A stretch of DNA of 64,000 nt from a virus, in IMG/VR virus record IMGVR_UViG_3300008116_003012, positions 32,001 through 96,000 of that record. One strand, written 5' to 3'. The translations under genes and the position numbers were made by a program. Shown one piece after another: positions 36,254 through 64,000 of this stretch; within the stretch, counting starts at the first letter, position 1; every line of letters begins with the position of its first letter. Under the pieces are notes generated by a model. It made no database searches, was not told where the DNA came from, and worked only from the letters and a program-made list of their open reading frames with translations.

Positions 36254-36585
36254 TAATGATTTCTCTTCCCGTCAAATACGCAAACAAAGTAAAGATTATT
36301 AGATTTTGATTTGTTATGAACACGATGAAATGCACCGTCTGGAATTAATACAACGTCACCTTCTAAAACATTAAATCGCTTGTCGTCTATTTCTATCTCT
36401 CCTATACCCAATACAAAATAATAAACTTCTTCTTGTCCCGGATGACTATGACCTCTAGTGCTTTGTCCTGCCTTTAAGTCAGTAGAACTTAGCACTAGAT
36501 TGTTTAAAGTTTTATTATCTTTGAGCACATAGGTTTCGTTGTCTTTGACAATTTCCCCTCCTACATTGTATATGCTCAATTTCAT
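36253..36585 (-). CDS. Cupin domain protein
   Basis: GHSHPGQEEVYY...GDVVLIPDGAFHRV. Confidence 0.85.
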   Translation of the reverse strand: MKLSIYNVGGEIVKDNETYVLKDNKTLNNLVLSSTDLKAGQSTRGHSHPGQEEVYYFVLGIGEIEIDDKRFNVLEGDVVLIPDGAFHRVHNKSKSNNLYFVCVFDGKRNH

Positions 36586-36586
36586 A

Positions 36587-48569: not shown

Positions 48570-49556
48570 ATGAACTTTACAGAAATACCATTTGAAAAAA
48601 TTGTGCGTTTTGGACAACGAACAATGTTGACTCGCCCGTTGTTTTCCACAAGCTGGATACTAGGACGTTTTTGCAATTACAAATGTAGTTATTGTTGGCC
48701 TTATGCACGTAGCGATCAACTTGATTATCAAAGTTTAGACGTATATAAGTGTACAGTAGATCAAATAAAAAGTCAAGCTCGTTTGAACGGATTTACCGAA
48801 TTTCATTGGAGTTTCAGTGGAGGAGAACCTACTGCTTACAAAGGGCTATTAGAACTAACCAAATATTTAGATGATGGTGTGCAGACTCCTTATCAAAGTG
48901 TACACATGACTACCAATCTATCACCTGGATTAGAATGGTGGAAACGTTGGTCTAATGCTACTTCTATGTTAGCTAGACGCAGTATTACAGCAAGCCATCA
49001 CGCAGAGTTTGCTAAAGAACAAGAGTTTGGTGATAAGATTTTACATCTAACAGACGAAAATGTTTTTGTCACTATCAATCAAGTAATGGTACCTGAGTTA
49101 TTTTTTCAACTGTACGAAAAACTAGAACGCTTTCATCGAAGAGGAATAAACGTAACGTTGAAGCCGCAAAGCGATCCTACAGCTAGTCGTATAGTTGATG
49201 GGTACACTGACGAAATGACGCAGTTGATGCGTACAGGTTTCCCGCAACAGTCACAAGGTGAAGATATATATCAAATATCACTGTTTGATAAAAGTAATGA
49301 AGAATACCTATTTGATCAAGCTGAGAGATTCAACGCATTTGGATTTAATAAGTTTAAGGACTGGTCTTGCAATAGCGGATATCAAAGTGTTATTATAAGA
49401 AGTAACGAAGTTAAAAGAAGTTATAGTTGTCATGACGGAGCATTAGGAACGTTAACAGAAGGGTTTAATCTTTTTAAATCTCCTAAGGTTTGTATAACTC
49501 CTACTTGTGTAAGTTCTGCAGACAGTAAAATACCAAAAATAAAAAATGAATATTGA
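48570..49556 (+). CDS. Radical SAM protein
   Basis: CNYKCSYC, FSGGEP, C-terminal Cys cluster (C.SG...SC...C....C). Confidence 0.9.
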   Translation: MNFTEIPFEKIVRFGQRTMLTRPLFSTSWILGRFCNYKCSYCWPYARSDQLDYQSLDVYKCTVDQIKSQARLNGFTEFHWSFSGGEPTAYKGLLELTKYLDDGVQTPYQSVHMTTNLSPGLEWWKRWSNATSMLARRSITASHHAEFAKEQEFGDKILHLTDENVFVTINQVMVPELFFQLYEKLERFHRRGINVTLKPQSDPTASRIVDGYTDEMTQLMRTGFPQQSQGEDIYQISLFDKSNEEYLFDQAERFNAFGFNKFKDWSCNSGYQSVIIRSNEVKRSYSCHDGALGTLTEGFNLFKSPKVCITPTCVSSADSKIPKIKNEY

Positions 49557-50145
49557 CACAGAACATTTACATCATTGGATGCAGGCTATTAGGCAAAGTC
49601 CTGATCCTATGCGTACAATGGACGCCTTTTGGAGTGGACAGCTTCGCAGCAAAGAATGGCTTATAGATTGTTTAGATGAGCATGTACACCACAGTTCTAG
49701 TATAGACATTCACGGAGGATGGGTAGGTGTACTGGCTAGTATGATTTTTCAAAGCAACATACCTGTTACTACTATTAGAAGTATAGACATTGATTCGTCG
49801 TGTGAATCTATTGCCAACATGATGAACAGACAAGAATATTTGAATAATAAATTTAGAGCTGTAACTGCTAACATGTGTGAGATTCGTAGCGACGCTGATA
49901 TTTCTATTAACACTAGTTTTGAACACATATCTCAAGACGATTATGATTTATGGTTAAGCGGATTGAAGCACAACAGTTTAATAGTACTGCAAACAAATAA
50001 TTACAAAATACCTGAGCATATTAGAATTTCTAAAAATTTAGAAGAATTTAAAGAACAAGCAGGTTTAGAAAAAGTTTTATATTCTGGAGAATTAGAGTTA
50101 CCTTTATATAAAAGATTTATGATTATAGGATATAAGAATGTTTAA
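49546..50145 (+). CDS. Class I SAM-dependent methyltransferase-like protein
   Basis: IHGGWVG, SIDID, INTSFEH. Confidence 0.7.
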   Translation: MNIDTEHLHHWMQAIRQSPDPMRTMDAFWSGQLRSKEWLIDCLDEHVHHSSSIDIHGGWVGVLASMIFQSNIPVTTIRSIDIDSSCESIANMMNRQEYLNNKFRAVTANMCEIRSDADISINTSFEHISQDDYDLWLSGLKHNSLIVLQTNNYKIPEHIRISKNLEEFKEQAGLEKVLYSGELELPLYKRFMIIGYKNV

Positions 50146-51229
50146 ATTTTCAGAACTACACGCAGTTCATTTAGAAATTACTAATAATTGTCAAGCAAAA
50201 TGTCCTATGTGTTCTAGGAACTACAGGGGAGGATTAGAAAATCCGTACATCAAAGTTAATGAATGGTCACTTGAAGATTTTTCTACAATCTTCAATCAAG
50301 AAGTATTAGATCAATTAAAGAGTATTTTCTTTTGCGGAAATTTTGGAGATCCTATTATCAACAACGACCTAGCAGAAATGTGTGGGTACGCTACTAACGG
50401 AAATCCAAATTTACAAATAAGAATACATACTAACGGCGGAGCACGATCTAAAGAATGGTGGAGGTCATTGCCCGCAAAACTTCCTAGAAATCATTTTGTT
50501 ATATTTGGGATTGATGGACTAGAAGATACTCATCACATTTACAGAGTTGGTACTAAGTATCAACAGGTTATCGATAATGCCAAAGCATTTATAGATGCCG
50601 GAGGGATTGCAGAATGGGTCTTTATTAAATTCAAACATAACGAACACCAAGTAGAAGAAGCAAGGAAAAGAGCTAAAGAATTAGGATTCAAACTATTTAC
50701 AGTTAAAAACAGTACTAGATTTTTAGAAGAAAAATTTAAAGTCCTTGATAAAAATGGAAACACTGATTATTACTTAGAACCTCCTACAAACAATCAAGTG
50801 ACTTTAATTTCACCTGATATGATTAAAAATTATAAGGTATGGGTTGATGATTCTAACATTGAATGTTACGTTCAACAAAATAGAGAAATATACATAGACG
50901 CATACAAAAATTTATTTCCCTGCTGTTTCCTTGCATCTACTCCTTATAATTATACAGAAGAAAATGACTTTACGTTCCCTGTAAGACAAGAAGTAAAAAA
51001 ACAGTATTCTAAATTAGTAGAATCGCTAGGCGGAATAGAAAATCTAAGTGCCACAAAGGTAGGTGTAAAAAATATACTAGAATCTAATTCTTGGCAAACT
51101 GTTTGGGATTATTACTGGAATGAATATAAACTAATTGTTTGTGCTAGAACTTGCGGAGTTAGTGCAAGCAAACCAATTTCAAAACCTAAAGATCAGTTCG
51201 TAGAAAGATCTAACCTTAAGGAAGAATGA
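50138..51229 (+). CDS. Radical SAM protein with a SPASM/twitch-like C-terminus
   Basis: CQAKCPMC, CGNFGDP, TNG, FGIDG, C...PCC...C..TC. Confidence 0.9.
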   Translation: MFKFSELHAVHLEITNNCQAKCPMCSRNYRGGLENPYIKVNEWSLEDFSTIFNQEVLDQLKSIFFCGNFGDPIINNDLAEMCGYATNGNPNLQIRIHTNGGARSKEWWRSLPAKLPRNHFVIFGIDGLEDTHHIYRVGTKYQQVIDNAKAFIDAGGIAEWVFIKFKHNEHQVEEARKRAKELGFKLFTVKNSTRFLEEKFKVLDKNGNTDYYLEPPTNNQVTLISPDMIKNYKVWVDDSNIECYVQQNREIYIDAYKNLFPCCFLASTPYNYTEENDFTFPVRQEVKKQYSKLVESLGGIENLSATKVGVKNILESNSWQTVWDYYWNEYKLIVCARTCGVSASKPISKPKDQFVERSNLKEE

Positions 51230-52385
51230 TATCTCTAGAGTGAAGACTTAATAAATGATTTCTATTCCAGTCTAACACACTGTACATTTCTTTATAAAGA
51301 CAGTGTAATTGATCGTTAGACAGGCTGTTAATGTAATCAATAAGTTTAAAAATCTTTAATAATCTTTCTGCATGATCAGATTCTTCATCGTAAGACTCGT
51401 CCCACCATTTATCAAAAGTTTTAAACCCTAGTTCTTTCAAATACTGTAAAGTAAATGGGGCACCTATCATTATAAAAGGTGTTAGTGTAACCATAGAGTT
51501 AAATGTTTTTTCAGTAATTGTAGCAGTAGGTTGAAAAAATACTGATTCAGTAACTATTGCTGCAAACGAATCTTCAAAACTTTTTAAAAAGTTTTCTAAA
51601 TTTCCATCCCAAGTCCACGGAAAGTTTGCAATTTTAGGAAATTTATAATTTTCAATTACAATTTTATCAATCTTATTATCAATGAAAAAATCTGTTTGAT
51701 TTAAAATTTTATTTCCTTCTTTTAGATAGTACCAAGGTAAAGTTTTAAGCCAAGTGATATCTTCGCATATATTGTTACAGGAAAACGGCCAACTGTACTT
51801 CCCTGGCTTATCAGCTAGATAACACATTAGTAAGTGTCTATGATTAGTAAATCTATTTGCAGAACACCAAAACTTATATTTGATTTCATTTTTGGGCTTA
51901 AACAATTCTGCGTTATACTTATAACCAATTGATTCGGTTTGATTTTGAAAATCTAAACACTGTAATGTTAAATTAGGATAATTTTGAAAAATATATTTTG
52001 TTGTATTGTATTCACAACAATGAACAGTTATGCTAATTTCTTCTTCTCTAGCAAACTTATCTGCAACATCTAACACAGGAGTTCGCAATTCTGTATGAAG
52101 CTGGTCGTTGTATTCTAGTTCATTGTATTCTTTTACAGTTTTATCAGTATCTGAATAATATCTAAACCATTCAAACAAATATATTTCTATCCCAGTTTCT
52201 TTAAGTAAATGTTTGTTTAAATTGTGTTTAATGTTGTCTAAAGAAAATTCTTTTCCTTGTCCTATATAAACAATTGAAGGAACTTTAGTTCTTCCCAAAG
52301 CGGTAGATTCAATTATTTCATTGTCTAGTACAATAGTAGAAGATAACTCAAAAGGAAAGTTATGATAATAAATGTTTTCCCGCAT
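51216..52385 (-). CDS. Putative glycosyltransferase-like protein
   Basis: IVTES......TEKT......PF...G....L..L..LGFKTF..WWDESYD motif, common in phage sugar-modification islands; the function is inferred. Confidence 0.5.
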   Translation of the reverse strand: MRENIYYHNFPFELSSTIVLDNEIIESTALGRTKVPSIVYIGQGKEFSLDNIKHNLNKHLLKETGIEIYLFEWFRYYSDTDKTVKEYNELEYNDQLHTELRTPVLDVADKFAREEEISITVHCCEYNTTKYIFQNYPNLTLQCLDFQNQTESIGYKYNAELFKPKNEIKYKFWCSANRFTNHRHLLMCYLADKPGKYSWPFSCNNICEDITWLKTLPWYYLKEGNKILNQTDFFIDNKIDKIVIENYKFPKIANFPWTWDGNLENFLKSFEDSFAAIVTESVFFQPTATITEKTFNSMVTLTPFIMIGAPFTLQYLKELGFKTFDKWWDESYDEESDHAERLLKIFKLIDYINSLSNDQLHCLYKEMYSVLDWNRNHLLSLHSRDIILP

Positions 52386-52386
52386 A

Positions 52387-53373
52387 TCAATGACTTCTAA
52401 ATAAATCTAATGTGACACAATGGAACCCGCCTCCTAGTGTACGTTGTTGTCTTGCTGGCAGCATTGCACATTCTATTTTGTGCTTCTCTAATTCTTTTCT
52501 AAGTTCGTGTTGATGATCTGGTATTGCCGCTAGATTAGGATTGACAGAAAAGATATTCATAGCAACCCATTTGCTACTGTTACAATAGCCAGGGTAGTGT
52601 GCGACTTCGCCAGGGTCAGGTGCCCATACAACATCCCAATTTTGCAACGGCTTTGGTAATTGTTCGACACTTTTTATCCTGCTGGGATTTAACAGCATTA
52701 ATCCTTCTCTTAGTAATGTAATAGTACTGTCAATGTGCATGTAACTATAGACACCTTCTAGTGTCCATACACGCTTGTTACCTACTAGATTTTGTAGATA
52801 TTCTGCACCTTTTTTATTTCCGCTGTTGCTGACAAGATATATTAAGTCATCATTTACTTTTAAAACATTTGCAGCATCAAAACAAGGTTGTGTTTCATTT
52901 AATGCAAGAGTGTCTTTATCTCCTAAGCAATTTAGGTTGTATAATTCTTTATTGTAATTAATAGGTGCTTCAATATATTTTGCACCTAATCGCTCTAAAG
53001 GTTCAAAATGTTCATGCATAGCAAGATATTCTTTATGTCTTGCACGTAAAGGTTGCGGCGTTGCTAAAATTGTATCGTTATATACTATGACGCTGTCTCT
53101 AGGACAATAATTGTAATAATTAGGTAACGGAGTGCGTTTTGGTCTTAATACTTCTACACTTTCTCCTTTAAGAAAGTTGCAAAATGTTTCTAAGTCTTCA
53201 TTGGCTTCGTCTATTACTTGTTGAGGATATAATCCTTCAGGAATGTCACTAGAATCTTTTTTATCTGCGTAATTTACAACTCGAAGACTTACATCAAGTT
53301 TAGGTATTCTTGCACCATCAGCAACACCTACAATAACTGTTTTAAGAGTATCCCACTCGTTTTTGCTTAACAT
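52387..53373 (-). CDS. Amidinotransferase (glycine / inosamine-phosphate amidinotransferase family), copy 1
   Basis: NEWD.L..VIVG, CPRD, FDAAN, SGN..G, HIDST, GGGFHCVTLD (Asp-His-Cys triad). Confidence 0.9.
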   Translation of the reverse strand: MLSKNEWDTLKTVIVGVADGARIPKLDVSLRVVNYADKKDSSDIPEGLYPQQVIDEANEDLETFCNFLKGESVEVLRPKRTPLPNYYNYCPRDSVIVYNDTILATPQPLRARHKEYLAMHEHFEPLERLGAKYIEAPINYNKELYNLNCLGDKDTLALNETQPCFDAANVLKVNDDLIYLVSNSGNKKGAEYLQNLVGNKRVWTLEGVYSYMHIDSTITLLREGLMLLNPSRIKSVEQLPKPLQNWDVVWAPDPGEVAHYPGYCNSSKWVAMNIFSVNPNLAAIPDHQHELRKELEKHKIECAMLPARQQRTLGGGFHCVTLDLFRSH

Positions 53374-53432
53374 TTAATTACCTCGGACAAATAAAAGATT
53401 AAATAGTAGCAGTTATTTAATTGAATACTACT

Positions 53433-53846
53433 ATGCTTACACAAATTTTTTCAAAAGTAAACCCAGAAAAACTGTTACATTCTGTATATAGGCCCACTGT
53501 TAAGTCTAACAGAATAGACTTAGCACCTCCAGAACAGTTTTTGCAATTGTCAATAATCAATCCTTCACATGGAAAAAAATATGATAAGCACTATCATATA
53601 TGGAAAACTCCTTCATTTGATAAGACTATTGCACAAGAATCATGGGTTATAATATCTGGTTCAGTAAGAGTCAGCTTTTATGATACAGATAATCAATTAC
53701 TACAAGAAGAAATAATAGGGCCTGGAGAGTGTTCTATGACTTTTGAAGGAGGTCATACTTACGAAATCCTTGAAGAAAACACTTCAATCTACGAATTTAA
53801 AACAGGTCCTTATAACGGAAGAGAAAATGACAAACAGTTTTTTTGA
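53433..53846 (+). CDS. WbuC-like cupin
   Basis: KHYH...QESW...G...V.FYD...GGH...YEFKTGPY. Confidence 0.7.
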   Translation: MLTQIFSKVNPEKLLHSVYRPTVKSNRIDLAPPEQFLQLSIINPSHGKKYDKHYHIWKTPSFDKTIAQESWVIISGSVRVSFYDTDNQLLQEEIIGPGECSMTFEGGHTYEILEENTSIYEFKTGPYNGRENDKQFF

Positions 53847-54591
53847 TAATAAAACAGTAGGTATAGCAGGCTACGGATTTGTTGGAAAAGCCACGCATCG
53901 AGGTATTCTCAACGACATGCCTGTATTAATTCACGACCTACAAAGAAATACAAACTTATCTGATCTCCAAGATGCTAGTACAGTATTTTTCTGTGTACCT
54001 ACTGATAATCAAAATGATGTAAATCGTTTACTTAATGAGATTAAAAAATTAAAAGAAATTAATAAAGAATGTAAGATTATTATTAGAAGTACAATTCCCT
54101 TAGGAACATCTAAACGTATAGAAGAACTAATACAAGACAAAATTATCTATATACCAGAATTTTTCCGCCAGCGCATTTGGGAAGAAGAGTGCGGTCGCAG
54201 ACCATTGATAGTAGGTCACAACGGAATAAATGTCAAAGAGTGGATCGGAGACGATGACTTTTTAGAATGTTCCTTAGAAGAAGCAGAACTAATAAAAATG
54301 TTCAGCAATAATTTTGCTGCATTAAGAGTTGTCTTTGCAAATCATTTCTACGAGTTAGCTGAACAAAGTAATTGCAACTACGATGTAATTACAAAATTAT
54401 TTTCTAAAGTCATGCATCCTGAATCCTATCTTGAAGTAAATGAAGATTTAAGAGGATTCGGAGGGAAGTGTTTGCCAAAAGATTTAGATTTTATAATCAA
54501 CACTTTCAATCAATTAGGATTGTCTCAAACATTATTTGATTCTGTTAAGAAAGATAACGAACAATGGAAAATTACCGTAAGAGAATCTTAA
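53827..54591 (+). CDS. UDP-glucose/GDP-mannose dehydrogenase family (short form)
   Basis: GYGFVG, CVPT, IRST, PEF.R, AELIK, GFGGKCLPKD. Confidence 0.88.
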   Translation: MTNSFFDNKTVGIAGYGFVGKATHRGILNDMPVLIHDLQRNTNLSDLQDASTVFFCVPTDNQNDVNRLLNEIKKLKEINKECKIIIRSTIPLGTSKRIEELIQDKIIYIPEFFRQRIWEEECGRRPLIVGHNGINVKEWIGDDDFLECSLEEAELIKMFSNNFAALRVVFANHFYELAEQSNCNYDVITKLFSKVMHPESYLEVNEDLRGFGGKCLPKDLDFIINTFNQLGLSQTLFDSVKKDNEQWKITVRES

Positions 54592-55466
54592 TAACTGGTG
54601 CTGCGGGTCTTATAGGTAGAGAACTTTGTAATAAGTTATCTCTCAAGCATCATGTTGTAGGAGTTGATAATAATTTTAGATTTAATGACTACACTCCAGA
54701 AAACTGCTACTATGTTAAGAAAGATTTAAAAGAATTTATAGCATCTGCTGACAATGACTTTGACTACGTATTTCACATGGCGGCTATAAATGGTACAAGT
54801 CATTTCTATGACATGCCTCTAAATGTATTAGAAAATAATATTACTACAGATTTAGAAATATTCAATTTTGCCGGAAAAAATAAAAACTGCAAATTAATAT
54901 ATGCCAGCAGCAGCGAAATTGTTGCAGATTCAAAAAACTTTCCTACGGCTGAAGAAACAGATGTTGTTATAAAAGACATACACAATTCAAGATGGAGTTA
55001 TCGATTACCAAAAATTGTATCTGAAAATTATCTATTCAACAGCAACTTAGATTTTTTAATTGTGAGATTTTTCAATGTCTACGGTGCTAACAGTACCAAA
55101 GGACATTTTATAGGTGATATTTTAGAAAAAATAAATTCTAATGTATTTGAAATACATGGGTCTAACGAAACAAGATCTTTCTGTTATATAGATGATGCTA
55201 TTACTGCACTGTTATCTATATACGAACAAGTCAGCAGAGAAGTAATCAATATAGGAGCACAGGAAGAAATATCTATTCTAGATGCTGCAAATCAAATTGC
55301 AGAGTGCATGGGTATTAAAGATCCTAACTGGAAAATAGTTCCTAGCAGATATGGCAGTGTTGATAGAAGAATTCCTGATATAACAAAACTTAAATTTTAT
55401 TTTAAGCAATATAATCCTATATCTTTTAAACAAGGTATAGAGTTGATTCTAAAGTCTCGTCAATAA
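54564..55466 (+). CDS. NAD-dependent epimerase/dehydratase (UDP-glucuronate decarboxylase-like)
   Basis: TGAAGLIG, HMAA, ASSSE, Y...K (YRLPK), RFFNVYG, TRSFCYIDD. Confidence 0.9.
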   Translation: MENYRKRILITGAAGLIGRELCNKLSLKHHVVGVDNNFRFNDYTPENCYYVKKDLKEFIASADNDFDYVFHMAAINGTSHFYDMPLNVLENNITTDLEIFNFAGKNKNCKLIYASSSEIVADSKNFPTAEETDVVIKDIHNSRWSYRLPKIVSENYLFNSNLDFLIVRFFNVYGANSTKGHFIGDILEKINSNVFEIHGSNETRSFCYIDDAITALLSIYEQVSREVINIGAQEEISILDAANQIAECMGIKDPNWKIVPSRYGSVDRRIPDITKLKFYFKQYNPISFKQGIELILKSRQ

Positions 55467-56263
55467 CACTTAGTAAAAATAGTTATTCCGCTTTTTTCTT
55501 TATGTGTGCCAGCGCCCGCATGTAGTCTGTTTCGTTCAAACACAATTACATTGCCTGGAGTCCATTCTACTATATTTGAAACAGTTAGTCCATGAAGACT
55601 TTCTATATCAATATGATTTAAGTATTTGCTGTGCATTGCTTGATCAAACAATTTACTTTTATCATAGTTAACAATTTGAGAATAATCATAGCAACGATTA
55701 TCAACTTTGCCAATTTTTTTATCAGACCTAGCTTCTATTAAGTATTCTAGTTCTTTTATCAGTTTGCTGTCCACGTTAAAGTCTGTTATAGATTCTGGAG
55801 AATCTATACATTGTTTATAAAATTCTCTAATATCTTTTACAGTTTGAAATTGTTCTTGTTTGTTGGGCAGTTGATATTCAAAAGGCGAGTTTTCTTTTTT
55901 GCTAAATTTTGCACTGTGTCCGTTCCAAAAGTTATCAAAGAATACAGTGTAAGATTCTCCGTTATTGTAAAGAGGAATTATTATTCCATGTCCAGTACTT
56001 TGTTCTTCAGTATCTCCGCTGTCAACATGTAACTTAAAGCTTATTTTAAATAGATTAAAAATTACTTCATCAACTTGATAATTGTAATCTAATACTGAGT
56101 CTAGTACTTTTTTAACAATATGTTGAGGCCATTGGTCCATATCCCACCTAGGATGCTTACTAGCAACATCTGGTCTTATATCAGACCGATGATCTAAAAT
56201 ATTTTGATAATAAATTAGTTCATTGATCTCTGCCGGAGTAAGGACATTTTTTATTTCAAACAT
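55460..56263 (-). CDS. 2OG-Fe(II)/DSBH-like oxygenase with a large insertion, copy 1
   Basis: LHVDSG...IIIPL ... W.PG.VIVFER.RLH.G (HxD...H). Confidence 0.55.
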   Translation of the reverse strand: MFEIKNVLTPAEINELIYYQNILDHRSDIRPDVASKHPRWDMDQWPQHIVKKVLDSVLDYNYQVDEVIFNLFKISFKLHVDSGDTEEQSTGHGIIIPLYNNGESYTVFFDNFWNGHSAKFSKKENSPFEYQLPNKQEQFQTVKDIREFYKQCIDSPESITDFNVDSKLIKELEYLIEARSDKKIGKVDNRCYDYSQIVNYDKSKLFDQAMHSKYLNHIDIESLHGLTVSNIVEWTPGNVIVFERNRLHAGAGTHKEKSGITIFTKCY

Positions 56264-56272
56264 ATAAAATAT

Positions 56273-57259
56273 TTATGGCTTAGATCTAATTAAATCTAGT
56301 GTAACGCAGTGAAATCCACCGCCTAGTGTTCTTTCGTGACGCATTGGTAACATAGCACAATCTATTTTATATTTTTCTAATGCTTTTCTTAAAGGTTCTT
56401 GACTTTCTTCTACAACAATTAAGTTAGGATTAATCGAAAAAACGTTCATGTTCATCCATATGCTGGCATTGCAATAACCAGGATAATGTCCTATATCTAT
56501 AGGCTCAGATGCCCAAATGTAATCCCAACTTTGTAACGGCTTAGGTAGTTGATCTATGCTTTTTATTCTGCTGGGGTTCAACAACATTAGACCTTCTCTA
56601 AGGAGGGCAATGGTGCTGTCAATGTGCATGTAACTATAGACACCTTCTACTAAATGTACTTTAGCATTGTTTCCTACTAACTCTTGTAGATAGGCAGCTC
56701 CTTGTTTATTGCCACTATTGCTGACCAAATAAAACAGATCTTGATTGCATTTTAAAACATTAGCTGCATCAAAACTAGCTGTAGTTTCTGTTAGTGCCAA
56801 GACATCTTTGTCTTGTACACAAGCTTCGTTGTATAGACTATCTGGATGGTCTGGTCTATTTTTAATATATCTAACTTCTGGATATTTTAAAAAGCAGTGT
56901 TCTAAGGCAAGATGTTCATTCTTTCTTGCTCTCAGCGGTTGAGGTGTTGCAAGTATTAAGTCATCATAGACTAATACGCCATCCCTTGGGCAATAGTTAT
57001 AGTATTCTGGAATAACACCGTCGTCGGGTCTAAGAACTTCTATGTTTTCTTTTTTTAAAAAATCACAGAACACTTCTAAATCTTCATTGGCTTCATCTAT
57101 AACTTGTTTTGGATAGAGTCCTGTTGGGATGTCATTTATGTCAGTGACATTTGCATAATTAACTGTTCTAAGGCTTAAATCTACTTTAGGAATAGCGGCG
57201 TTTGTTGCACTACCTACAATTACAGTTTTTAAAGGATCCCATTCATTTAAACTTAGCAT
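56273..57259 (-). CDS. Amidinotransferase, copy 2
   Basis: Same motifs as 52387..53373, triad intact. Confidence 0.9.
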   Translation of the reverse strand: MLSLNEWDPLKTVIVGSATNAAIPKVDLSLRTVNYANVTDINDIPTGLYPKQVIDEANEDLEVFCDFLKKENIEVLRPDDGVIPEYYNYCPRDGVLVYDDLILATPQPLRARKNEHLALEHCFLKYPEVRYIKNRPDHPDSLYNEACVQDKDVLALTETTASFDAANVLKCNQDLFYLVSNSGNKQGAAYLQELVGNNAKVHLVEGVYSYMHIDSTIALLREGLMLLNPSRIKSIDQLPKPLQSWDYIWASEPIDIGHYPGYCNASIWMNMNVFSINPNLIVVEESQEPLRKALEKYKIDCAMLPMRHERTLGGGFHCVTLDLIRSKP

Positions 57260-57286
57260 TTATCATTTTCCTTGTTAAATACATTT

Positions 57287-57784
57287 ATGCAAAATTTTGG
57301 AAAAACACCTGTGTCTTGGAATATAGAAAATTTTAAAAAATTACCATATAAACTCGATCCTGATTTAATAATGTGTGAAGAATACGTAGCCGTAGGTCAC
57401 CATTTAGAATCTATGAAGTTTTACAATTGTTTTGAAACAGACATAGGATTTCCTTTAGATAGTATTGTTAAAAATTTTGATTTTTTATCTAACATTCGGA
57501 TCGCAGTAAATCTGTTTACACCCGGACAGTACATTCCGTTGCACTCTGACAAGTACGAAAGATTTAGCAAACTTAACAAGCTTTCAAACTTAGATTCTGT
57601 TGTTAGAATTATTCTAATGTTAGAAGACAATGTGCCTGGACAGTTTTTACAAATTGAAGATAAAGTAATTTATTCTTGGCAAGCAGGAGATTGGTTTGCG
57701 TGGAAGTCTACTGCCCAACATGCCTTTTATAATTTTAGCAAGCAGAACAGATATTCTCTACAGATAACCGGAACATTAAATTAA
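57287..57784 (+). CDS. 2OG-Fe(II) oxygenase-like protein
   Basis: PGQYIPLHSD ... H...N.....RYSLQITG. Confidence 0.7.
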   Translation: MQNFGKTPVSWNIENFKKLPYKLDPDLIMCEEYVAVGHHLESMKFYNCFETDIGFPLDSIVKNFDFLSNIRIAVNLFTPGQYIPLHSDKYERFSKLNKLSNLDSVVRIILMLEDNVPGQFLQIEDKVIYSWQAGDWFAWKSTAQHAFYNFSKQNRYSLQITGTLN

Positions 57785-58371
57785 TTAAAAATAGGTAATA
57801 AAGAAAGATCAGGGTAGTCTGTATAGTCTACTGTTCTTGGAGCAATGTCTTTAACTTTATTAAATTTTTCTATACCAGCAGCAGCAGTTTCTGGAGTCAT
57901 ATAATAATGATATCCCATGGTGTAAATTTTCTGTTCAGCCCATAACACATCGCGATCTCTACCATCATAGCTCATTCTTACTAGTTGATCTCTATCTTCT
58001 TTATTATCTAATAGAATCATCCCTCCTCGGCCTAGTCCCAAATGCTTACGAAACTGAAAACTTAAACACATATTTGTTCCGGAAATGTAACTTTGTTCTT
58101 TCCAAAGAACCGCAGCATCTATTATGTTTGTATTAGACAAATAATAATAGTCTTGCCATTGCTCGTCCTTCCATTGCCATTCTATGTTTAATTTCTTTAA
58201 AGTCATAGGCACTGAAACATATGTATGTTTTGGACTACTGCTTGTTTTGATGTCTTGTAATCTAAGACATAGTTCTATTGCATGAGTGCAACAATCTGTA
58301 GCAACTGCATATTTAGAACCATAGTACTCGGCTATGGTATTTTCAAATTGGGTTATAGTATTAAAGCTCAT
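57781..58371 (-). CDS. DegT/DnrJ/EryC1/StrS PLP aminotransferase, minimal form
   Basis: FE..IAEY.G..YAVA.DCCT.AI.L, IIDAA, SFQFRK.L..GRGGMI, GY.Y.M. Confidence 0.85.
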   Translation of the reverse strand: MSFNTITQFENTIAEYYGSKYAVATDCCTHAIELCLRLQDIKTSSSPKHTYVSVPMTLKKLNIEWQWKDEQWQDYYYLSNTNIIDAAVLWKEQSYISGTNMCLSFQFRKHLGLGRGGMILLDNKEDRDQLVRMSYDGRDRDVLWAEQKIYTMGYHYYMTPETAAAGIEKFNKVKDIAPRTVDYTDYPDLSLLPIFN

Positions 58372-58442
58372 GACAATATTTATTGTTTATAATTTAGAGC
58401 ATTTTTTTTAATGTTAAATAATGGTATCAACAGGAAGAATAA

Positions 58443-59249
58443 ATGATTAGTATCCATAATAAAATTCTAAGCAACGAAGAAGTAAAAATTTTATTAGACT
58501 ATTTTCAAAAAGACGATGAAAAAGTAGATGCAAGGCCGGATGTAAGAAGTAAGCATCCTATATGGGAAGAGACAGATTGGCCAGAATATATTATTCAAAA
58601 TGCATTAACTAGAATATTAAACTACGATTACAAGGTAGAAGAAGTTGTATTTTTTGAATCTAAAATAAGCTATAGCCTTCATGTTGATAGCGGAAAATGT
58701 CCTAAATCTAGAACAGGAAATGTTGTTATATTTCCGTTAACAGTTGAAGGTCTTGGTACAACTGCGTTGTTTAACAATTTTTGGAATAAAGACAGCACTA
58801 GATTTAGTAGAGTAATACTAGAACCTTTTGAATATAATTTACCTAATAAATTTAATGAATTGACTTATGTAAAAGATTTAAGAGAGTTGCTAGTAAAGTG
58901 TAAAACTGATCCGTTGTCAATTGAAGATTTTAATGTAGATAGTGCATTTATATCTACTATAGAATATCTTATTGATGCTAGACAAGACAAAAAAGTTAGT
59001 AAAACCGACGGAAGGTGTTACGACTATACTGATATTGTTAATTGGAAAGCTGATGAAGAGTTTGATAAAACATTGCATCAACAACATTTAAGTCATATAC
59101 CAATTGAAACTTTACAAGGTCTTACTTTGAATTCAATTGTAAATTGGAACATAGGAGACTGCTTTTGTTTTGAAAGAACAAGATTACATTGTGCAGGATC
59201 TGGTCACAAAGTAAAAACAGGATTAACAATTTTTACTCAACGTGCTTGA
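58443..59249 (+). CDS. 2OG-Fe(II)/DSBH-like oxygenase with a large insertion, copy 2
   Basis: Colinear paralog of 55460..56263 (RPDV.SKHP.W, LHVDSG, RCYDY, FER.RLH, GLTIFT). Confidence 0.55.
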   Translation: MISIHNKILSNEEVKILLDYFQKDDEKVDARPDVRSKHPIWEETDWPEYIIQNALTRILNYDYKVEEVVFFESKISYSLHVDSGKCPKSRTGNVVIFPLTVEGLGTTALFNNFWNKDSTRFSRVILEPFEYNLPNKFNELTYVKDLRELLVKCKTDPLSIEDFNVDSAFISTIEYLIDARQDKKVSKTDGRCYDYTDIVNWKADEEFDKTLHQQHLSHIPIETLQGLTLNSIVNWNIGDCFCFERTRLHCAGSGHKVKTGLTIFTQRA

Positions 59250-61128
59250 CTGTACATTTCCAATATTGATTTTTTCTTTGATAGTGATATGCAACTCTAA
59301 AGAACTCTTCTTCTGAAAGAATACGATGATCACCTGTATGATTTATTTCAATCACTGATGATTCTTGCCCTAATACTATTTTCGTAGTTTCAATATCTTG
59401 GCTGTTGTAAGTAATAGGATATTCTGTGTCTTTATCAACACAAAGTAAAATATTTAAATCTTCTAATGTTTTATTATTTAGATTGTATGTAACTTTTAAA
59501 AAATTACTTAGTTCATCAACAAACTGTTGTCGGTTTCTATGAAATTTAACACACGTAGCTGACTTGTATTCCCAATAGGTGTTATTTAATTTCGTTCCCC
59601 AAAACTCTCCGTTAAGTATAACATTTTCTATATTTTCTTTAGTTAAAGTATGCTCAGAGTAAAACAGCTTAGGTTTAGCTTGTTCTATGTAGTTTATAAG
59701 ATCAGATGTAAAACGAGTTTCATTAATTTTTAAAACATTCTTAACATACTTTATTATGTGATGAGCCCATCCGTAATAATACATCACAATTATCCAATGT
59801 GAAAACATGTAACCTTTTATTACTTCTTCAAATGTTAAATGCTTTGTTGAACAAACAGTTCCCATAGTTTCAGTAATATAATTTTCTTCATCTTCTACAT
59901 TTAACCAAAATGTGTCTAATGGAACTATCTTAGAAACTATATCTTTGCTTTTTAAATACTCAGGATTACTCATTGGAGCATTAGGAGTTAATGACAGTGG
60001 ATGAATCATTAAGAAATTTTCTTGCCCCATATCAATTAATTTTTGTATGCCTGTTATAAAGCTATCAAGAGTCTCTTCAGGCATAGGCCATATTAATTCA
60101 GAGTATGTTTTTATATCATTTTCTTTAAAAAAATCCATTGACTCTTTAATAGTTTTTTCTTGAAGATTAAATCTATCAATGGCTTCTAATGTTTTTTCAT
60201 TTAAGCTTTGTAGTGCAAATGTAATTCCTTTGAACAAGTTAGTGCCTGCTTTTTTGTCCAAGGAAGATATTTTTTTAATTCTTTCTGTATTATTTTTTGC
60301 CCAGTCTACATCCCATACATTAGGATATCCAGTTTCTAATTTTTTCTTTATAACATAGGCAGTTATATCATAATCTCTTTCAAGCATTCCCCAGTTACTA
60401 TCGCATATTGACACGTATTCAATTTTGTTTTCTGAAATCCAATCAATTTCTTTATAAACTCTTTCAAGGTCAAACAGCTTTACTTTATTCCAATAGGAAC
60501 TGCCTATATCGCAAAAGCTACAATGATAAGGGCAACCTCTTAGTGTTTCATAAGTTACTTGCCATAGAAACTTTTTATTATGTCTTTTTTCATAATTTTC
60601 CATAATAAAATTATAGAACCCCGATAATATAGGACTAGGCAGTTTATTAAGATTCTCAGTTCGATTTATTCCAGGTATAATTTTTCCAGGAAGAGAAATT
60701 CCGCCAATGTCATCAAAGTTTTTAGAATCTAAATTGTTTAAAATAGATGTTAATGCGTTTTCGTTTTCCCCTAAAACTGCTATGTCAAAACACTTATTAG
60801 TTTTTAATAAAAAGGGATCTGTTGTACTAACTTGAGGCCCGCCTATAATTATAAAACTTTCAGGCCATTTTTCTTTAATTCTTTTTGCAAGTTTTCGATT
60901 ATAGTTCCAATTCCAGATATAGCAACTCATAATAACAACGTGAGGTGTATCTATTCTAGAAACAAATGACTCAATTGATTCTTTTTCTATTAGTACGTCT
61001 TTTAAAATAAAATTATTCTTAACAAAGTCGTTTTCAATCGCAGTAAGCCAATGATAAGATATAGCAAGTGGCAAAAATTTATTAGGGCCGTAACTGTCAA
61101 CGACTTGAATCAAATATACATTTTTCAT
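59233..61128 (-). CDS. B12-binding-domain radical SAM enzyme (class B methyltransferase-like)
   Basis: LPLAI, S.YIWN, IIIGGPQ cobalamin domain; ETLRGCPYHCSFC. Confidence 0.88.
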   Translation of the reverse strand: MKNVYLIQVVDSYGPNKFLPLAISYHWLTAIENDFVKNNFILKDVLIEKESIESFVSRIDTPHVVIMSCYIWNWNYNRKLAKRIKEKWPESFIIIGGPQVSTTDPFLLKTNKCFDIAVLGENENALTSILNNLDSKNFDDIGGISLPGKIIPGINRTENLNKLPSPILSGFYNFIMENYEKRHNKKFLWQVTYETLRGCPYHCSFCDIGSSYWNKVKLFDLERVYKEIDWISENKIEYVSICDSNWGMLERDYDITAYVIKKKLETGYPNVWDVDWAKNNTERIKKISSLDKKAGTNLFKGITFALQSLNEKTLEAIDRFNLQEKTIKESMDFFKENDIKTYSELIWPMPEETLDSFITGIQKLIDMGQENFLMIHPLSLTPNAPMSNPEYLKSKDIVSKIVPLDTFWLNVEDEENYITETMGTVCSTKHLTFEEVIKGYMFSHWIIVMYYYGWAHHIIKYVKNVLKINETRFTSDLINYIEQAKPKLFYSEHTLTKENIENVILNGEFWGTKLNNTYWEYKSATCVKFHRNRQQFVDELSNFLKVTYNLNNKTLEDLNILLCVDKDTEYPITYNSQDIETTKIVLGQESSVIEINHTGDHRILSEEEFFRVAYHYQRKNQYWKCTVKHVE

Positions 61129-61167
61129 ATGTATTATTTATTAACGCATTTTTTTAGAAGTAAATAT

Positions 61168-61728
61168 ATGATGTTAACTACAAAAAATTTAATAGATTGG
61201 GATAAAATCATTTTCAACATCAGTCCTGAAAGCGGTGATCCAATCACTATGTCTGCTGTGCTAAACAAATCAGAGCACTCAAGGACTGACAAACAACTTA
61301 TGTCAGACTATGAAGAAATAGCAAAGACATGGCTAAATGCAGGTTACAACTTAGAAAATATCAAATGGTATGATTATTATCCAGGGGAACATTTTGATAA
61401 AAGTATAGAAACTGCTTTTGAAAATTTAGTAAATGCCAAAGCTAGAAGAGTTTGGATTAGTGAAATAATGCCTGGAATAACTTCGCCTTATCACTGGGAC
61501 GTAGAAGACTATGAGCAACAATGGCTTAGTGAAGGCAATCTAGTTAGATATACTTGTTTTATAGAACAGCCTACTGATGGTCACATTTTTGTATTAGAAG
61601 ATCAACACTTTTATAATCCCGAACAGCATTCAGTAATCAAATGGGAAAATCATCGTCACTATCACGCTGGATCAAACTGCGGATTTAAACCCTTTTATCT
61701 TTTTCATTTTGTAGGAACTCCTAGATGA
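61168..61728 (+). CDS. Asp/Asn beta-hydroxylase-like 2OG-Fe(II) oxygenase
   Basis: WIS...PG...PYHWD ... HAG.NCG..P.YLF. Confidence 0.7.
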   Translation: MMLTTKNLIDWDKIIFNISPESGDPITMSAVLNKSEHSRTDKQLMSDYEEIAKTWLNAGYNLENIKWYDYYPGEHFDKSIETAFENLVNAKARRVWISEIMPGITSPYHWDVEDYEQQWLSEGNLVRYTCFIEQPTDGHIFVLEDQHFYNPEQHSVIKWENHRHYHAGSNCGFKPFYLFHFVGTPR

Positions 61729-62270
61729 TCAATTATATAGGAAACTCTAGTTCTATTATTAATTGGCAAGCACTGATAGACAATTTAAAAAATCAAGAGC
61801 CTGCTTATGTAGGCCCTAGTCACAGTAGAAAAGATAATATTCCTGGAGTTCATAACATTTTAGATAAGTGGGATGCCGCAGGATATGTGTTACAAGAAAA
61901 TGGCGGCACTGTTGGATGGGATATGTTTCTCCCTCATAAAAATTTTGACGTTGAAATAGTTAACAAATTTGCTAAGTTCGTAGGACTTACATCTTATAAC
62001 AGTGCATGGGTCAGCAGAGTTAATCCAGGTATGGTTGTTCCTTATCATTGGGATGTTCATGACAATGAAGAAGAACTTTCTAGAATGGGAAATTTTAAAA
62101 GATGGCATTGTCACATTAGTGCCTCGAGTTTTGGTCATGCATTTTTTGCAGACAATCAATGTTTTTATAATCAAGAGCAGGGTGCGGTTTACGAATGGGA
62201 CGATAGGCGACATTGGCACGGTGGAATAAATTGCGGACTAGTGCCAAAGTATGTTTTTAATTTTTGGTAA
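61725..62270 (+). CDS. Asp/Asn beta-hydroxylase-like 2OG-Fe(II) oxygenase (tandem paralog)
   Basis: WVS...PG...PYHWD ... HGG.NCG..PKYVF. Confidence 0.7.
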   Translation: MINYIGNSSSIINWQALIDNLKNQEPAYVGPSHSRKDNIPGVHNILDKWDAAGYVLQENGGTVGWDMFLPHKNFDVEIVNKFAKFVGLTSYNSAWVSRVNPGMVVPYHWDVHDNEEELSRMGNFKRWHCHISASSFGHAFFADNQCFYNQEQGAVYEWDDRRHWHGGINCGLVPKYVFNFW

Positions 62271-62273
62271 TAT

Positions 62274-63692
62274 ATGGAAGAAATAAACGAATACTGGGAA
62301 CAACCAGAAGAAACTAAAATTGGTCATTGGCAAAATGTCATAAAAGAAAAAACAGGAAGTTCTACTTTCTGTGCTTTACCTTGGGTACACTTTGCTACAC
62401 GACCAAACGGAGATATGCGTCTTTGCTGTTCTGCTAACGCTAGTGGTGCTGGTACTGATCATGAAGTAGGTCTAGTTAAAAATGAAAGAGGAGTTCCTGC
62501 AAACTTTGGCAAAGAAACACCTATGAGTGCATGGAACAATGAATACATGAAGGATGTACGTTTGACTATGTTAGAAGGAAAAATTCCTGCTAGTTGTCAA
62601 AAGTGTTACAAAGAAGAAAGCAAAGGTGTTGCTAGTAAACGTATTTGGGAAACAGCTTATTGGACGTTAGACGGTGTTGACCTAGAAGAACTAGTAAAGC
62701 AAACAGAAGAAGATGGAACTATACCAGAAAAACTAGTTTATCTAGATTTAAGACTAGGGCATACTTGCAATCTAAAATGTGTTATGTGCAGTCCTCATGA
62801 CAGCAGCTTATGGGTTCAAGATCATAAAAAAATCTATCCTTTGTTACAGCATGATGCTTTAAAAAATCAAATGGGATGGGATCAAAAGAGTTTTAATAAC
62901 TATTGGCATGAGAATCCAGACTTCTGGAAAGAAATGTATGCACAGATTCCTAATCTTAAACAGGTGTACTTTGCAGGCGGTGAACCTCTTTTAATTAAAG
63001 AACATAAAACTTTCTTAGAAGAAATTATTCGTCAAGGATATGCTGACAAAATATTGATTAGATATAACACCAACGGACTGCTAATAGATGATACTATAAT
63101 AGAGCTATGGAAAAAATTTAAAAAAGTTAAAGTTGGGTTTAGTATAGACGCATTAACTGATAGAAATTACTATATTAGATTTCCTAGCGAATGGAGTAAG
63201 ATAGAAAAGAATCTTCATATATTAGACAACACTCCTAGCAATATAGAAGTTAGCATTGCTACTGCTATACAAATTTTAAATATAAAACATTTACCAGAAT
63301 TTGCCAAATGGAAGATTCAACAGAACTTTAAGAAAGTAAACTTTGAAAACGTTACAGGAGGCATACAAGCCGGCGGCGGAATTTTTAATATGCATTTGTT
63401 GTATATTCCTACTTTTTTAAGTATACGCTGCTTACCTAACGAAGATAAAGCAGAAGTTAGAAAACTTTTTGGAGAGCTTGCTAATTGGTTGTATGTAAAC
63501 TATAGACAAGATGAAGATTTTTGGAAGATTAATCCTTACGGATGGAAACGTTGGCAAGCTGTGTTAGATTTTATGGATGCCGAAGATCACACACATTTGC
63601 TGCCTGCGTTTAAAGAATACATTGAAAATTTAGATCCAATTAGAAAAACTAATTTTAAAAACTATTTTCCTGAACTAGCTCACTTAATATAA
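62274..63692 (+). CDS. Radical SAM protein with an N-terminal twitch/SPASM-like domain
   Basis: FCALPW...LCC...C..C, then CNLKCVMC, FAGGEP, YNTNG, FSID. Confidence 0.9.
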   Translation: MEEINEYWEQPEETKIGHWQNVIKEKTGSSTFCALPWVHFATRPNGDMRLCCSANASGAGTDHEVGLVKNERGVPANFGKETPMSAWNNEYMKDVRLTMLEGKIPASCQKCYKEESKGVASKRIWETAYWTLDGVDLEELVKQTEEDGTIPEKLVYLDLRLGHTCNLKCVMCSPHDSSLWVQDHKKIYPLLQHDALKNQMGWDQKSFNNYWHENPDFWKEMYAQIPNLKQVYFAGGEPLLIKEHKTFLEEIIRQGYADKILIRYNTNGLLIDDTIIELWKKFKKVKVGFSIDALTDRNYYIRFPSEWSKIEKNLHILDNTPSNIEVSIATAIQILNIKHLPEFAKWKIQQNFKKVNFENVTGGIQAGGGIFNMHLLYIPTFLSIRCLPNEDKAEVRKLFGELANWLYVNYRQDEDFWKINPYGWKRWQAVLDFMDAEDHTHLLPAFKEYIENLDPIRKTNFKNYFPELAHLI

Positions 63693-64000
63693 TGAAAAGA
63701 AAGATTATAAAAATTACCAACAATGTAAGTCCTAATGTTTTTAGGCTTGAATGGGTAGTGGGTAATTTGTGCAATCGTAAATGCTGGTATTGCTTTCCCG
63801 GAGCAAATGAAGGAACTTATCCTTTTCCTTCTGATATAGAGCTCATAAAGAAGAACTTTACTACCATGTTTGACAGTTACAAGGAAAACGGTATAGATAC
63901 GTTTGAAATATTACTTACAGGAGGAGAGCCTACTTTATGGAAAGAATTTCCTGAAGTACTAAACTTTTTTAAAGAAAACTATAATGTTGTAATACGCACA
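63692..64000 (+). CDS. Radical SAM protein (partial, runs off the window)
   Basis: Own translation MKRKII...GNLCNRKCWYCFP...LTGGEPTLW. Confidence 0.85.
   Translation, partial: MKRKIIKITNNVSPNVFRLEWVVGNLCNRKCWYCFPGANEGTYPFPSDIELIKKNFTTMFDSYKENGIDTFEILLTGGEPTLWKEFPEVLNFFKENYNVVIRT

Follow-up and report, generated by a model that had tools for sequence, protein, structure and literature searches.

The 64,000-nucleotide window analysed here spans positions 32001-96000 of one contig of 119,006 bases, IMG/VR virus record IMGVR_UViG_3300008116_003012 (classed as linear), and its last 15 kb belong to a phage island of enzyme genes that includes two amidinotransferases related to StrB1 of the streptomycin cluster. 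Coordinates below are those of the window unless given as genome positions, with the strand in brackets. The island runs from 48570 to genome position ∼112,451, ∼16 kb past the window end. An earlier note on this DNA had described a block of enzyme genes of 15 kb or more; the block is indeed there, and at ∼32 kb and 38 open reading frames (ORFs) it is larger. Positions 48570-64000 hold 17 whole ORFs and one cut ORF, nearly all enzyme-like, which overlap or are separated by gaps of a few dozen bases, and the coding strand flips eight times. The GC content is 0.30-0.345 between 50 and 64 kb, compared with 0.335-0.425 between 1 and 48 kb; this low GC and eight strand flips in 15 kb fit a mosaic built by recombination. 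The 3′ border lies at genome position ∼112,451, where the gene for a 695-amino acid (aa) Mtd_N tail-fibre-like protein starts. Judged by comparison with other phages, the conserved core of the island is a predicted oxygenase (cupin170), a small sugar aminotransferase homologue (mini-DegT), a StrB1-type, presumptive L-arginine amidinotransferase and a phage-only protein of predicted GT-B glycosyltransferase fold.

Amidinotransferase 1 (52387-53373, −) and amidinotransferase 2 (56273-57259, −) are each 328 aa long and are 67% identical. In a search of PDB sequences, amidinotransferase 1 matched StrB1 (1bwd) at E 3.7e-60, with residues 4-326 aligned against 7-339. It also matched HsvA (5wpi, second-best, E 1.4e-33), AGAT and SxtG (E 1e-33 to 1e-27), and scored 207 bits against StrB1 vs 118 against AGAT. 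The columns of C318, H212 and D164 are invariant in 11 phage amidinotransferases and align to the GGGFHC, H-x-D and FDAAN motifs of StrB1, whose Cys, His and Asp we take to be catalytic. With StrB1 homology over the full length and these residues kept, both genes look intact, as first reported, and of the pentein StrB1/AGAT type. PHROGs places both in phrog_25854, ‘unknown function’, and neither has a match in Pfam or NCBIfam.

In a tree of 128 amidinotransferases, built with the first 45 of 84 bacterial matches and with identical sequences removed, 75 viral sequences and the two from the window form one clade (SH-aLRT 100). Three sequences from Bdellovibrionales metagenome-assembled genomes (MAGs) stand beside it, and amidinotransferases of Acidobacteriota/betaproteobacteria, Pseudomonas, cyanobacteria and actinomycetes lie further out. 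The two window sequences belong to separate subclades, and both have orthologues in other phages. Some related loci also carry an extra, divergent amidinotransferase-like gene (32-42% identity; L101:4383-5438, L102:1652-2707, L103:4383-5441, L136:13872-14900, L111:5325-6380); these genes lie outside the main phage clade, and the window has no such third copy. The likeness to StrB1 thus consists of full-length homology, aligned catalytic Cys/His/Asp and a DegT-family partner; in the streptomycin cluster, StrB1 pairs with the transaminase StsC. The phage enzymes differ in forming their own clade, whose sisters are Bdellovibrionales MAGs and not actinomycetes, and in having a partner transaminase of half size. 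No inositol-phosphate synthase, inositol dehydrogenase or kinase or phosphatase family for cyclitols was found among the scanned ORFs of the 119-kb contig, and no DHQ_synthase in the genome. With no cyclase and no inositol enzyme found, the streptidine/aminocyclitol pathway was rejected for this genome.

The aminotransferase homologue, mini-DegT (57781-58371, −; Pfam DegT 2e-17), is 196 aa long vs ∼360-400 aa for canonical members of its family, and only one copy occurs in the island. Its AlphaFold2 (AF2) model, with a mean confidence (pLDDT) of 94.8, matches the pyridoxal phosphate (PLP)-binding large domain of GDP-perosamine synthase, ArnB, PglE, QdtB, AHBA synthase and BtrR (Foldseek E 5e-10 to 1e-7, TMq 0.65-0.76; 3dr4 E 5.1e-10). 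The alignments cover ∼216 of ∼366 target residues, and in Pfam the matched part of the 360-position profile is 165-241. The C-terminal small domain of those enzymes and an internal segment are absent. D85 and K109 are invariant in 35 aligned sequences; K109 is presumably the Schiff-base PLP lysine and D85 the pyridine-binding aspartate. A search of a 5.8-billion-protein metagenome collection returned homologues at E≤0.001 for at least 7980 of 8000 scored candidates, the 120 best of which are all 194-221 aa long. Because the homologues are uniform in length, the two residues invariant and the model confident, mini-DegT is a conserved family and not a broken gene or a truncation artefact. Lacking the C-terminal domain and full length, it is classed as a truncated offshoot of DegT/DnrJ/EryC1/StrS rather than a standard member; the DegT/StrS aminotransferase that the earlier note named was right in family and wrong in form. 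In metagenomes, mini-DegT is abundant both as a stand-alone protein and fused to GT-B, short-chain dehydrogenase/reductase (SDR) or methyltransferase domains.

The proposed glycosyltransferase-like protein (51216-52385, −) gains support from structure prediction. Its AF2 model, built from 44 sequences (pLDDT 92.8), shows a two-domain GT-B fold. The best Foldseek match is T4 beta-glucosyltransferase (BGT; E 2.4e-4), and VIA-align gives Z scores of 11.6 for T4 BGT, 10.7 for GtfC/Gtf3 and TarM, 10.6 for EXT1/2, 10.2 for Helicobacter pylori alpha1,3-fucosyltransferase and 9.8 for T4 alpha-glucosyltransferase. At Z≥8 there are 219 chains, and the matches listed are GT-B enzymes. Alignments to known GT-B enzymes span residues 6-387 at a sequence identity of 9-12%; what is shared with T4 BGT, GtfC/Gtf3, TarM and the H. 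pylori fucosyltransferase is the fold, while the sequences belong to a phage-only family. Pfam has no family for the protein, its ESM Atlas neighbours form virus-only clusters of up to 967 members, and a fold search of BFVD returned mostly uncharacterised phage proteins. It has 331 homologues at E≤0.001; among the 120 of them listed, two also carry DegT and the others are without a Pfam domain. A GT10 lead in the ESM Atlas scores 0.79-0.80, and the C-terminal motif may resemble that of GT10.

The fourth member of the core, cupin170 (57272-57784, +), is a 170-aa protein resembling Asp/Arg-hydroxylase-type oxygenases dependent on iron and 2-oxoglutarate (Fe/2OG; Pfam Asp_Arg_Hydrox 9.8e-6). The core genes keep company in other phages. 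In a narrow set of 13 viral loci (12 from IMG/VR and that of Synechococcus phage S-SCSM2R), mini-DegT lies near the amidinotransferase in 13/13, GT-B in 11/13 and cupin170 in 9/13. In a wider scan of IMG/VR with an amidinotransferase alignment, a relative is encoded in at least 497 of the 599 stretches matched; 80 loci were retained. Mini-DegT is a neighbour in 71 of these, cupin170 in 66 and GT-B in 42, followed by radical S-adenosylmethionine (SAM) enzymes of the CNxxC family (36), the N-twitch radical SAM (34), the 199-aa protein (25), the B12 radical SAM (24), the 363-aa radical SAM (23), the UDP-glucose dehydrogenase (UGDH; 19) and the SDR (10). Mini-DegT is at most 830 bp from the amidinotransferase in 61 of its 71 loci; of the nine loci without it, five have a contig end no more than 2 kb from the amidinotransferase. 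The commonest gene orders are mini-DegT/cupin/amidinotransferase (14 loci) and mini-DegT/amidinotransferase/cupin/GT-B, with frequent overlap between the amidinotransferase, mini-DegT and cupin170 genes. As a bacterial control, the same alignment was run against one genome per prokaryote species, and 80 loci were taken from 492 confirmed. Mini-DegT and GT-B stood beside the amidinotransferase in only two of these, both on Pseudobdellovibrionaceae MAG contigs, of which one (L019) has plainly bacterial neighbours. By these counts, the co-occurrence survey suggested in the earlier note indicates that the association of amidinotransferase, aminotransferase and sugar enzymes is non-random and conserved. 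With at least 497 such stretches and thousands of metagenome mini-DegT sequences, the cassette is frequent.

A cultured representative is available in S-SCSM2R, a cyanomyovirus whose ORF305-310 form the same cassette. These ORFs are annotated as ‘AHBA synthase’, radical SAM, glycosyltransferase, 2OG oxygenase and ‘inosamine amidinotransferase’, and the proteins corresponding to mini-DegT (195 aa), cupin170 and the amidinotransferase are 53%, 39% and 57% identical to those of the window. S-SCSM2R belongs to another phage lineage and has one cassette among 13 annotated glycosyltransferases (GT2/GT25), as against two cassette types and nine radical SAMs in the island. The passages on these genes in the 2025 paper assign ‘AHBA synthase’, ‘inosamine amidinotransferase’ and a radical SAM to antibiotic synthesis, as genes ‘never reported in cyanophage genomes’, and present no experiments on them (PMC12801897). 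Since a cultured phage carries the cassette, the question of its function is open to experiment now. An older parallel is the interchangeable module of Campylobacter phages CP220 and CPt10, in which Timms et al. (2010), in the section concerned, describe five radical SAM genes and a putative glycine amidinotransferase without assigning a function (PMC2853527). The CP220/CPt10 amidinotransferases are homologous to those of the window but distant (24-26% identity over 98-99% of the query), and a mini-DegT tblastn search matched seven phage records, none of them from Campylobacter. In the passages concerned, an ocean survey of auxiliary metabolic genes in viruses discusses only creatine-pathway genes (PMC11360552). 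Full-text literature searches found no characterised phage pathway of this composition, in keeping with the earlier note, and no report of a guanidino sugar in any phage.

Natural fusions tie the same domains together. A mini-DegT::GT-B fusion (P0210) is 33% identical over the whole of mini-DegT, and a second, P0248, was also checked; three more (P0235, P0249, P0250) are probable on the basis of their length and a PF01041 match. Mini-DegT is also fused to an SDR epimerase/dehydratase (P0252), to a WavE domain (P0257) and to methyltransferases of class-I or FkbM type (P0241, P0243, P0246). A full-length UGDH is fused to GT-B in a related locus (L012:4814-7186) and again in a BFVD entry, and P0157 is a candidate cupin::GT-B fusion (E 4.7e-4). 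Related loci add further sugar enzymes. NodU-type carbamoyltransferases occur in three of seven annotated loci (L012, L013 and L017), and L012 also encodes an NDP-hexose C-methyltransferase-type protein. In L008, a P-loop kinase and a nucleotidyltransferase lie between mini-DegT and the amidinotransferase, and ‘sporadic carbohydrate cluster’ proteins are present too. The contig of L008 (G001) also carries an AroB-like sugar-phosphate cyclase beside an SDR at the island edge (L099:1339-2400; 215 bits against the aroB model, cut-off 305), a gene present in one of the five records searched. In Flavobacterium phage immuto, which has no amidinotransferase, mini-DegT sits inside a glycosyltransferase cluster.

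The two amidinotransferases belong to different cassette types. Six loci (L109/112/114/116/117/119) hold orthologues of amidinotransferase 1 with 92% identity and share the order u198, mini-DegT, amidinotransferase, cupin, 199-aa protein, radical SAM. For amidinotransferase 2, the orthologues (75% identity) are in L101-L104/L126 and have as neighbours the B12 radical SAM, cupin170 and the proteins of 268 aa and 363 aa (the latter a radical SAM). At least two amidinotransferases occur in nine of the 80 viral loci. Judged by this synteny, the island is a mosaic that joins two cassette types, each met separately in other phages, with one mini-DegT. Because the two enzymes belong to different subclades and to cassette types that are separate elsewhere, the pair is best explained by the mosaic and not as two steps of one pathway. 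The streptidine logic of transamination and amidino transfer ‘performed twice’, as first suggested, finds one half-size transaminase for two amidinotransferases and does not hold. The island is an unusually large, mosaic case of a widespread phage cassette.

Between and around the core genes lie putative sugar enzymes. A dehydrogenase of UGDH type (53827-54591, +) matches the Pfam central domain UDPG_MGDP_dh at 1.7e-15 and the N-terminal domain at 6e-5, with no match to the C-terminal domain PF03720. Its ORF is open from 53743, with the probable start at 53827, just upstream of a GxGxxG motif. In PDB UGDHs of ∼400 residues, the alignments end near residue 283-289; the motif with the catalytic Cys is aligned to that of 7kws. 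There is no room for the UDP-binding domain because the SDR gene begins at 54564. The UDP-glucose-type dehydrogenase first reported is thus present as a family, in a form that lacks this domain. A second UGDH-like gene, outside the window at genome 12043-12852 (L004), encodes 269 aa with the NAD and central domains only; the shortened form is therefore recurrent in this phage. The SDR (54564-55466, +; 300 aa) is an extended SDR of the NDP-sugar epimerase/dehydratase family (Pfam Epimerase 8.6e-33), which agrees with the epimerase/decarboxylase proposed before; all NCBIfam equivalogs score far under their cut-offs. A small cupin-like protein at 53421-53846 (+) has a weak likeness to WbuC (NCBIfam TIGR04366, 3.1e-7). 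With 30.3 bits it falls short of the cut-off, 42, and it has no Pfam match, so the name WbuC given to it earlier is not confirmed.

Further cupins follow downstream. The protein at 61051-61728 (+), whose real start is probably ∼40 codons downstream, aligns to the cupin170 profile from its residue 88 (hhalign E 3.3e-13) and has no Pfam match. Its paralogue at 61725-62270 (+; hhalign E 1.3e-93 between the two) is linked to cupin170 at 4e-11, and profile-profile comparison also links three cupins past the window to cupin170. These two and cupin170 are the members of the five HxD...H oxygenases counted in the earlier note that stand, cupin170 by Pfam and the others by profile. The remaining two, a 267-aa protein (55460-56263, −) and a 268-aa protein (58443-59249, +), match only each other (hhalign E 5e-161) and have no Pfam, NCBIfam or PHROG family; their relatives in the Atlas form clusters of viral proteins only, for which DUF6445 is a weak lead at a 26% share.

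The whole island contains nine radical SAMs. A cobalamin-dependent, probable C-methyltransferase of 631 aa (59233-61128, −) has B12-binding (1e-10) and Radical_SAM (2.8e-11) domains in Pfam and matches TokK (7kdx, E 3.1e-56) and CysS (9n1b, 1.2e-47). It shares this domain pair with TokK, CysS and KedN5; its match to the KedN5 family (NF033712) reaches 3.7e-62 but, at 210.4 bits, lies under the cut-off of 700. Related phage loci have a longer form of this enzyme, of ∼750 aa. Both this enzyme and the four other radical SAMs expected in the window are borne out. A 328-aa enzyme of CNxxCxYC type (48570-49556, +; Pfam Radical_SAM 3.2e-9) is one of five paralogues across the island, and a 363-aa enzyme (50138-51229, +) matches Pfam Radical_SAM at 2.2e-8 and phrog_21308 at 1.2e-22. 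The N-terminal-twitch radical SAM at 62274-63692 (+; NF033640, N_Twi_rSAM, 1e-121) scores 406.8 bits vs a cut-off of 170 and has no PDB sequence match. The last one, at 63692-64000 (+), is cut by the window end. Its whole gene encodes 332 aa and reaches genome 96690 (L002:1692-2690), with Pfam Radical_SAM at 2.4e-8 for the fragment and 8.5e-12 for the whole. Between the first two lies the gene for a conserved partner protein of 199 aa (49546-50145, +), presumably the methyltransferase of the earlier note. It shows a Rossmann-like motif alone, has no Pfam, NCBIfam or PHROG match, and its profile finds none in the PDB, so that assignment is not confirmed.

Past the window, the island continues with the rest of the cut radical SAM and with another four enzymes of this kind, one of which has an N-terminal SPASM/twitch domain. 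There follow genes for a nitroreductase-like protein and a TauD-type dioxygenase, for three cupins that Pfam supports as Asp/Arg-hydroxylase or 2OG proteins, for a second GT-B paralogue and for several proteins without a family. The unassigned ORFs gave only chance-level matches to Pfam at E≤5. A scan of the island for promoters and terminators was close to shuffled sequence (79 vs 73.4 promoter-like and 8 vs 6.5 terminator-like sites).

What would such a cassette make? We put it at about an even chance that the cassette tailors a sugar-type unit with a guanidino group. The chemical steps, their order, the carbohydrate substrate and the acceptor are those we infer from homology, synteny and fusions. 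A keto position would be made on a sugar-type substrate, for which cupin170, the constant partner, is the best candidate and the UGDH-like protein and SDR are alternatives. Mini-DegT would transaminate the keto group to an amine, and the amidinotransferase would turn the amine into a guanidine with arginine as the amidino donor. The TokK/CysS-like B12 radical SAM may C-methylate the unit, the other cupins and radical SAMs may hydroxylate or otherwise rearrange it, and GT-B enzymes would couple it to an acceptor. Because of the natural fusions and the sugar enzymes of related loci, carbohydrate-type chemistry is favoured. The guanidino-, methyl- and hydroxyl-decorated sugar or cyclitol first envisaged thus survives in part: a sugar-type substrate bearing a guanidino group is what the enzyme families suggest, and for this genome the cyclitol or streptidine version drops out.

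A permanently cationic glycan on virions, on the host envelope or on DNA would have an effect on adsorption, on the evasion of defences or on recognition by the immune system. Sugar clusters encoded by phages are known, and their products have rarely been measured. The trimmed aminotransferase and dehydrogenase, and a GT-B family that has escaped annotation and acts as a hub of fusions, are enzymological novelties.

Several points weigh against a guanidino sugar. Full-text searches found no measured product of such a phage cassette. To our knowledge, characterised pentein amidinotransferases use free small amines (inosamine phosphate, glycine, polyamines), and we know of none that acts on an NDP-sugar or a glycan. 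Mini-DegT without its C-terminal domain and the window UGDH without its UDP-binding domain could either of them be non-catalytic, and given that both are trimmed, ordinary nucleotide-sugar chemistry is not to be assumed. Inside the island there is no sugar-1-phosphate nucleotidyltransferase; one cytidylyltransferase-like gene lies 40 kb off, at 8570-9016. No Wzx/Wzy or other export or lipid-carrier genes were seen among the island ORFs scanned. The top structural matches of the GT-B protein are tied within ∼1.4 Z, so that no single CAZy family is favoured. Finally, modification of peptides or proteins would be just as good a fit for the many radical SAM/twitch enzymes and Asp/Arg-hydroxylase-type cupins.

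The loss of the nucleotide-handling parts in the aminotransferase and the dehydrogenase, together with their fusions to GT-B, leaves room for tailoring after transfer, in which the trimmed mini-DegT and UGDH would act on a sugar already bound to a macromolecule and not on nucleotide sugars. Oxidation, amination and amidination after glycosylation would be a new mode of tailoring. We regard this version of the guanidino sugar as rather improbable. Were it true, with the phage genome as the acceptor, it would yield the first guanidino-glycosylated DNA, T4 BGT being the best structural match of GT-B.

DNA hypermodification in general, although unlikely, has the most to recommend it among the rival explanations. 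GT-B would glycosylate phage DNA, and cupin, mini-DegT and amidinotransferase would tailor the group after replication, giving a guanidino base or sugar that blocks restriction. The T4 beta-glucosyltransferase match and the T4 alpha-glucosyltransferase score both point this way, but the former is tied with GT-Bs that glycosylate proteins or teichoic acid and with fucosyltransferases. Domain-trimmed enzymes could suit a polymer-bound substrate, and a bioRxiv preprint documents, in the part concerned, phage DNA glycosylation with epimerase-dependent, elaborated sugars such as hexuronic acid, heptose and Kdo (10.1101/2023.12.21.572611). The genome also encodes FolE and a PTPS/QueD-like protein. 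However, no thymidylate-synthase-type hydroxymethylase, TET/JBP dioxygenase, TGT/DpdA or QueC was found in the 119-kb fragment, which is weak evidence because CheckV estimates the contig at 33% of a genome. The ThyX, dCMP deaminase and dUTPase that it does encode fit an ordinary supply of dTTP. The relative G002, which is 95% complete, shows just a ThyA-family gene, with a canonical score of 360 bits, and no TET/JBP. Moreover, a trio of cupin/mini-DegT/amidinotransferase type sits among housekeeping genes, with no DNA-modification partners, on a Bdellovibrio-like MAG contig.

The 7-deazaguanine route was considered for the island and rejected: FolE and a PTPS-like gene are present, and TGT/DpdA and QueC were not found in this fragment of an incomplete genome. 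Elsewhere on the contig there is a run of genes for a DAO-type FAD oxidoreductase, a class II aldolase, a Cupin_2 protein and a PTPS/QueD-like protein (window 34418-37114, −, and genome 11293-11991, L004), with a GTP cyclohydrolase I gene at another place. This run could be pterin- or 7-deazaguanine-related, or serve the salvage of radical-SAM by-products.

A diffusible small molecule, resembling an aminoglycoside, aminocyclitol or nucleoside antibiotic and made in the infected cell, is quite unlikely. The idea draws on the nearest solved relatives of the island enzymes (StrB1, TokK and CysS), which come from secondary metabolism, on NodU/TobZ-type carbamoyltransferases in related loci, and on the S-SCSM2R authors, who in the passages concerned propose ‘antibiotic synthesis genes’ (PMC12801897). 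The AroB-like cyclase next to the island in the related contig G001 would suit it too, but that gene is confined to one of the five records searched and was found neither in the window genome nor in G002. Among the contig ORFs scanned, none was recognised as encoding an inositol-phosphate synthase, an inositol dehydrogenase, an exporter or a self-resistance protein. Several GT-B copies per locus and the fusions of GT-B to tailoring domains fit acceptor-bound assembly better, and a lytic phage would presumably have little time to gain from an antibiotic.

We attach an equally low probability to protein or peptide modification, in which the radical SAMs, B12 methyltransferase and cupins would modify a virion or host protein, or a peptide made by the ribosome and modified after translation (RiPP), and the amidinotransferase would turn lysine- or ornithine-type amines into homoarginine or arginine. 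The nine radical SAMs (two have N-terminal twitch/SPASM domains), the Pfam Asp_Arg_Hydrox cupins and the adjoining tail-fibre-like gene would all be accounted for, and the S-SCSM2R paper, in its proteome results, lists a second amidinotransferase of that phage among the proteins detected in virions (PMC12801897). The genes most tightly linked to the amidinotransferase, however, encode an aminotransferase of sugar type and a family of glycosyltransferases, with UGDH and SDR fusions. Small-molecule methylases are the nearest relatives of the B12 radical SAM, and RiPP methylases score weaker. No gap stands out for a precursor peptide gene among four intergenic gaps of 13-72 nt, no dedicated short-ORF search having been run. 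Highly improbable, lastly, is auxiliary primary metabolism in which the amidinotransferases, unlinked to their neighbours, would produce guanidinoacetate, homoarginine or a guanidino polyamine and so tune the nitrogen or energy metabolism of the host: related phage genes are annotated ‘glycine amidinotransferase’ and HsvA, presumably an enzyme that prefers polyamines, is the second-best PDB match, but the StrB1 match is far stronger than that to AGAT, and linkage to mini-DegT (71/80) and cupin170 (66/80), with frequent overlap, argues for one pathway. The emphasis on creatine-pathway genes in the relevant passages of the ocean survey of virus-encoded auxiliary metabolic genes is a further point in its favour (PMC11360552).

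As to the source, the earlier note took the DNA to be from a phage, and the IMG/VR record and gene content confirm it. The contig encodes tail-fibre and baseplate-like proteins, a clamp loader, an ATP-dependent ligase, ThyX, dCMP deaminase, dUTPase, PhoH, ClpB, ClpP, DnaJ, Cpn10 and a family-B DNA polymerase (PolB). Among 50,697 phage records, the nearest relatives of PolB are in the jumbo phages Phosso, Atu_ph07 and the PBECO4 group (45-48% identity), and a megablast of the island and its flank against the same records gave zero matches. For both reasons, the contig is taken as part of an uncultured and probably jumbo phage. Near-identical DNA occurs in 20 DNA sequencing runs among the matches listed, with lake, freshwater and estuary labels as well as ‘fungus metagenome’, and in no RNA sequencing run among them.

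Outside the island, PolB is split into two neighbouring ORFs at genome 19711-22306 (L005:4711-7306), an exonuclease of 318 aa and a polymerase of 564 aa, and the tblastn matches in jumbo phages are likewise in two pieces. The chaperone and protease set of the phage (DnaJ, Cpn10, ClpP and a ClpB-like AAA+ protein) is encoded at window 635-1474, 9885-10268 and 43182-43802 and at genome 30335-32599. Within the tail-fibre region, adjoining genes at 16639-18285 and 18287-20995 (both −) encode two large proteins (548 and 902 aa) that have subtilase S8 domains and both match phrog_9158. A 2386-aa protein at 24646-31806 (−) has tail-fibre PHROG matches and a weak N-terminal match to T4 gp9/10, and a Bax1-inhibitor-like membrane protein is encoded at 39725-40396.

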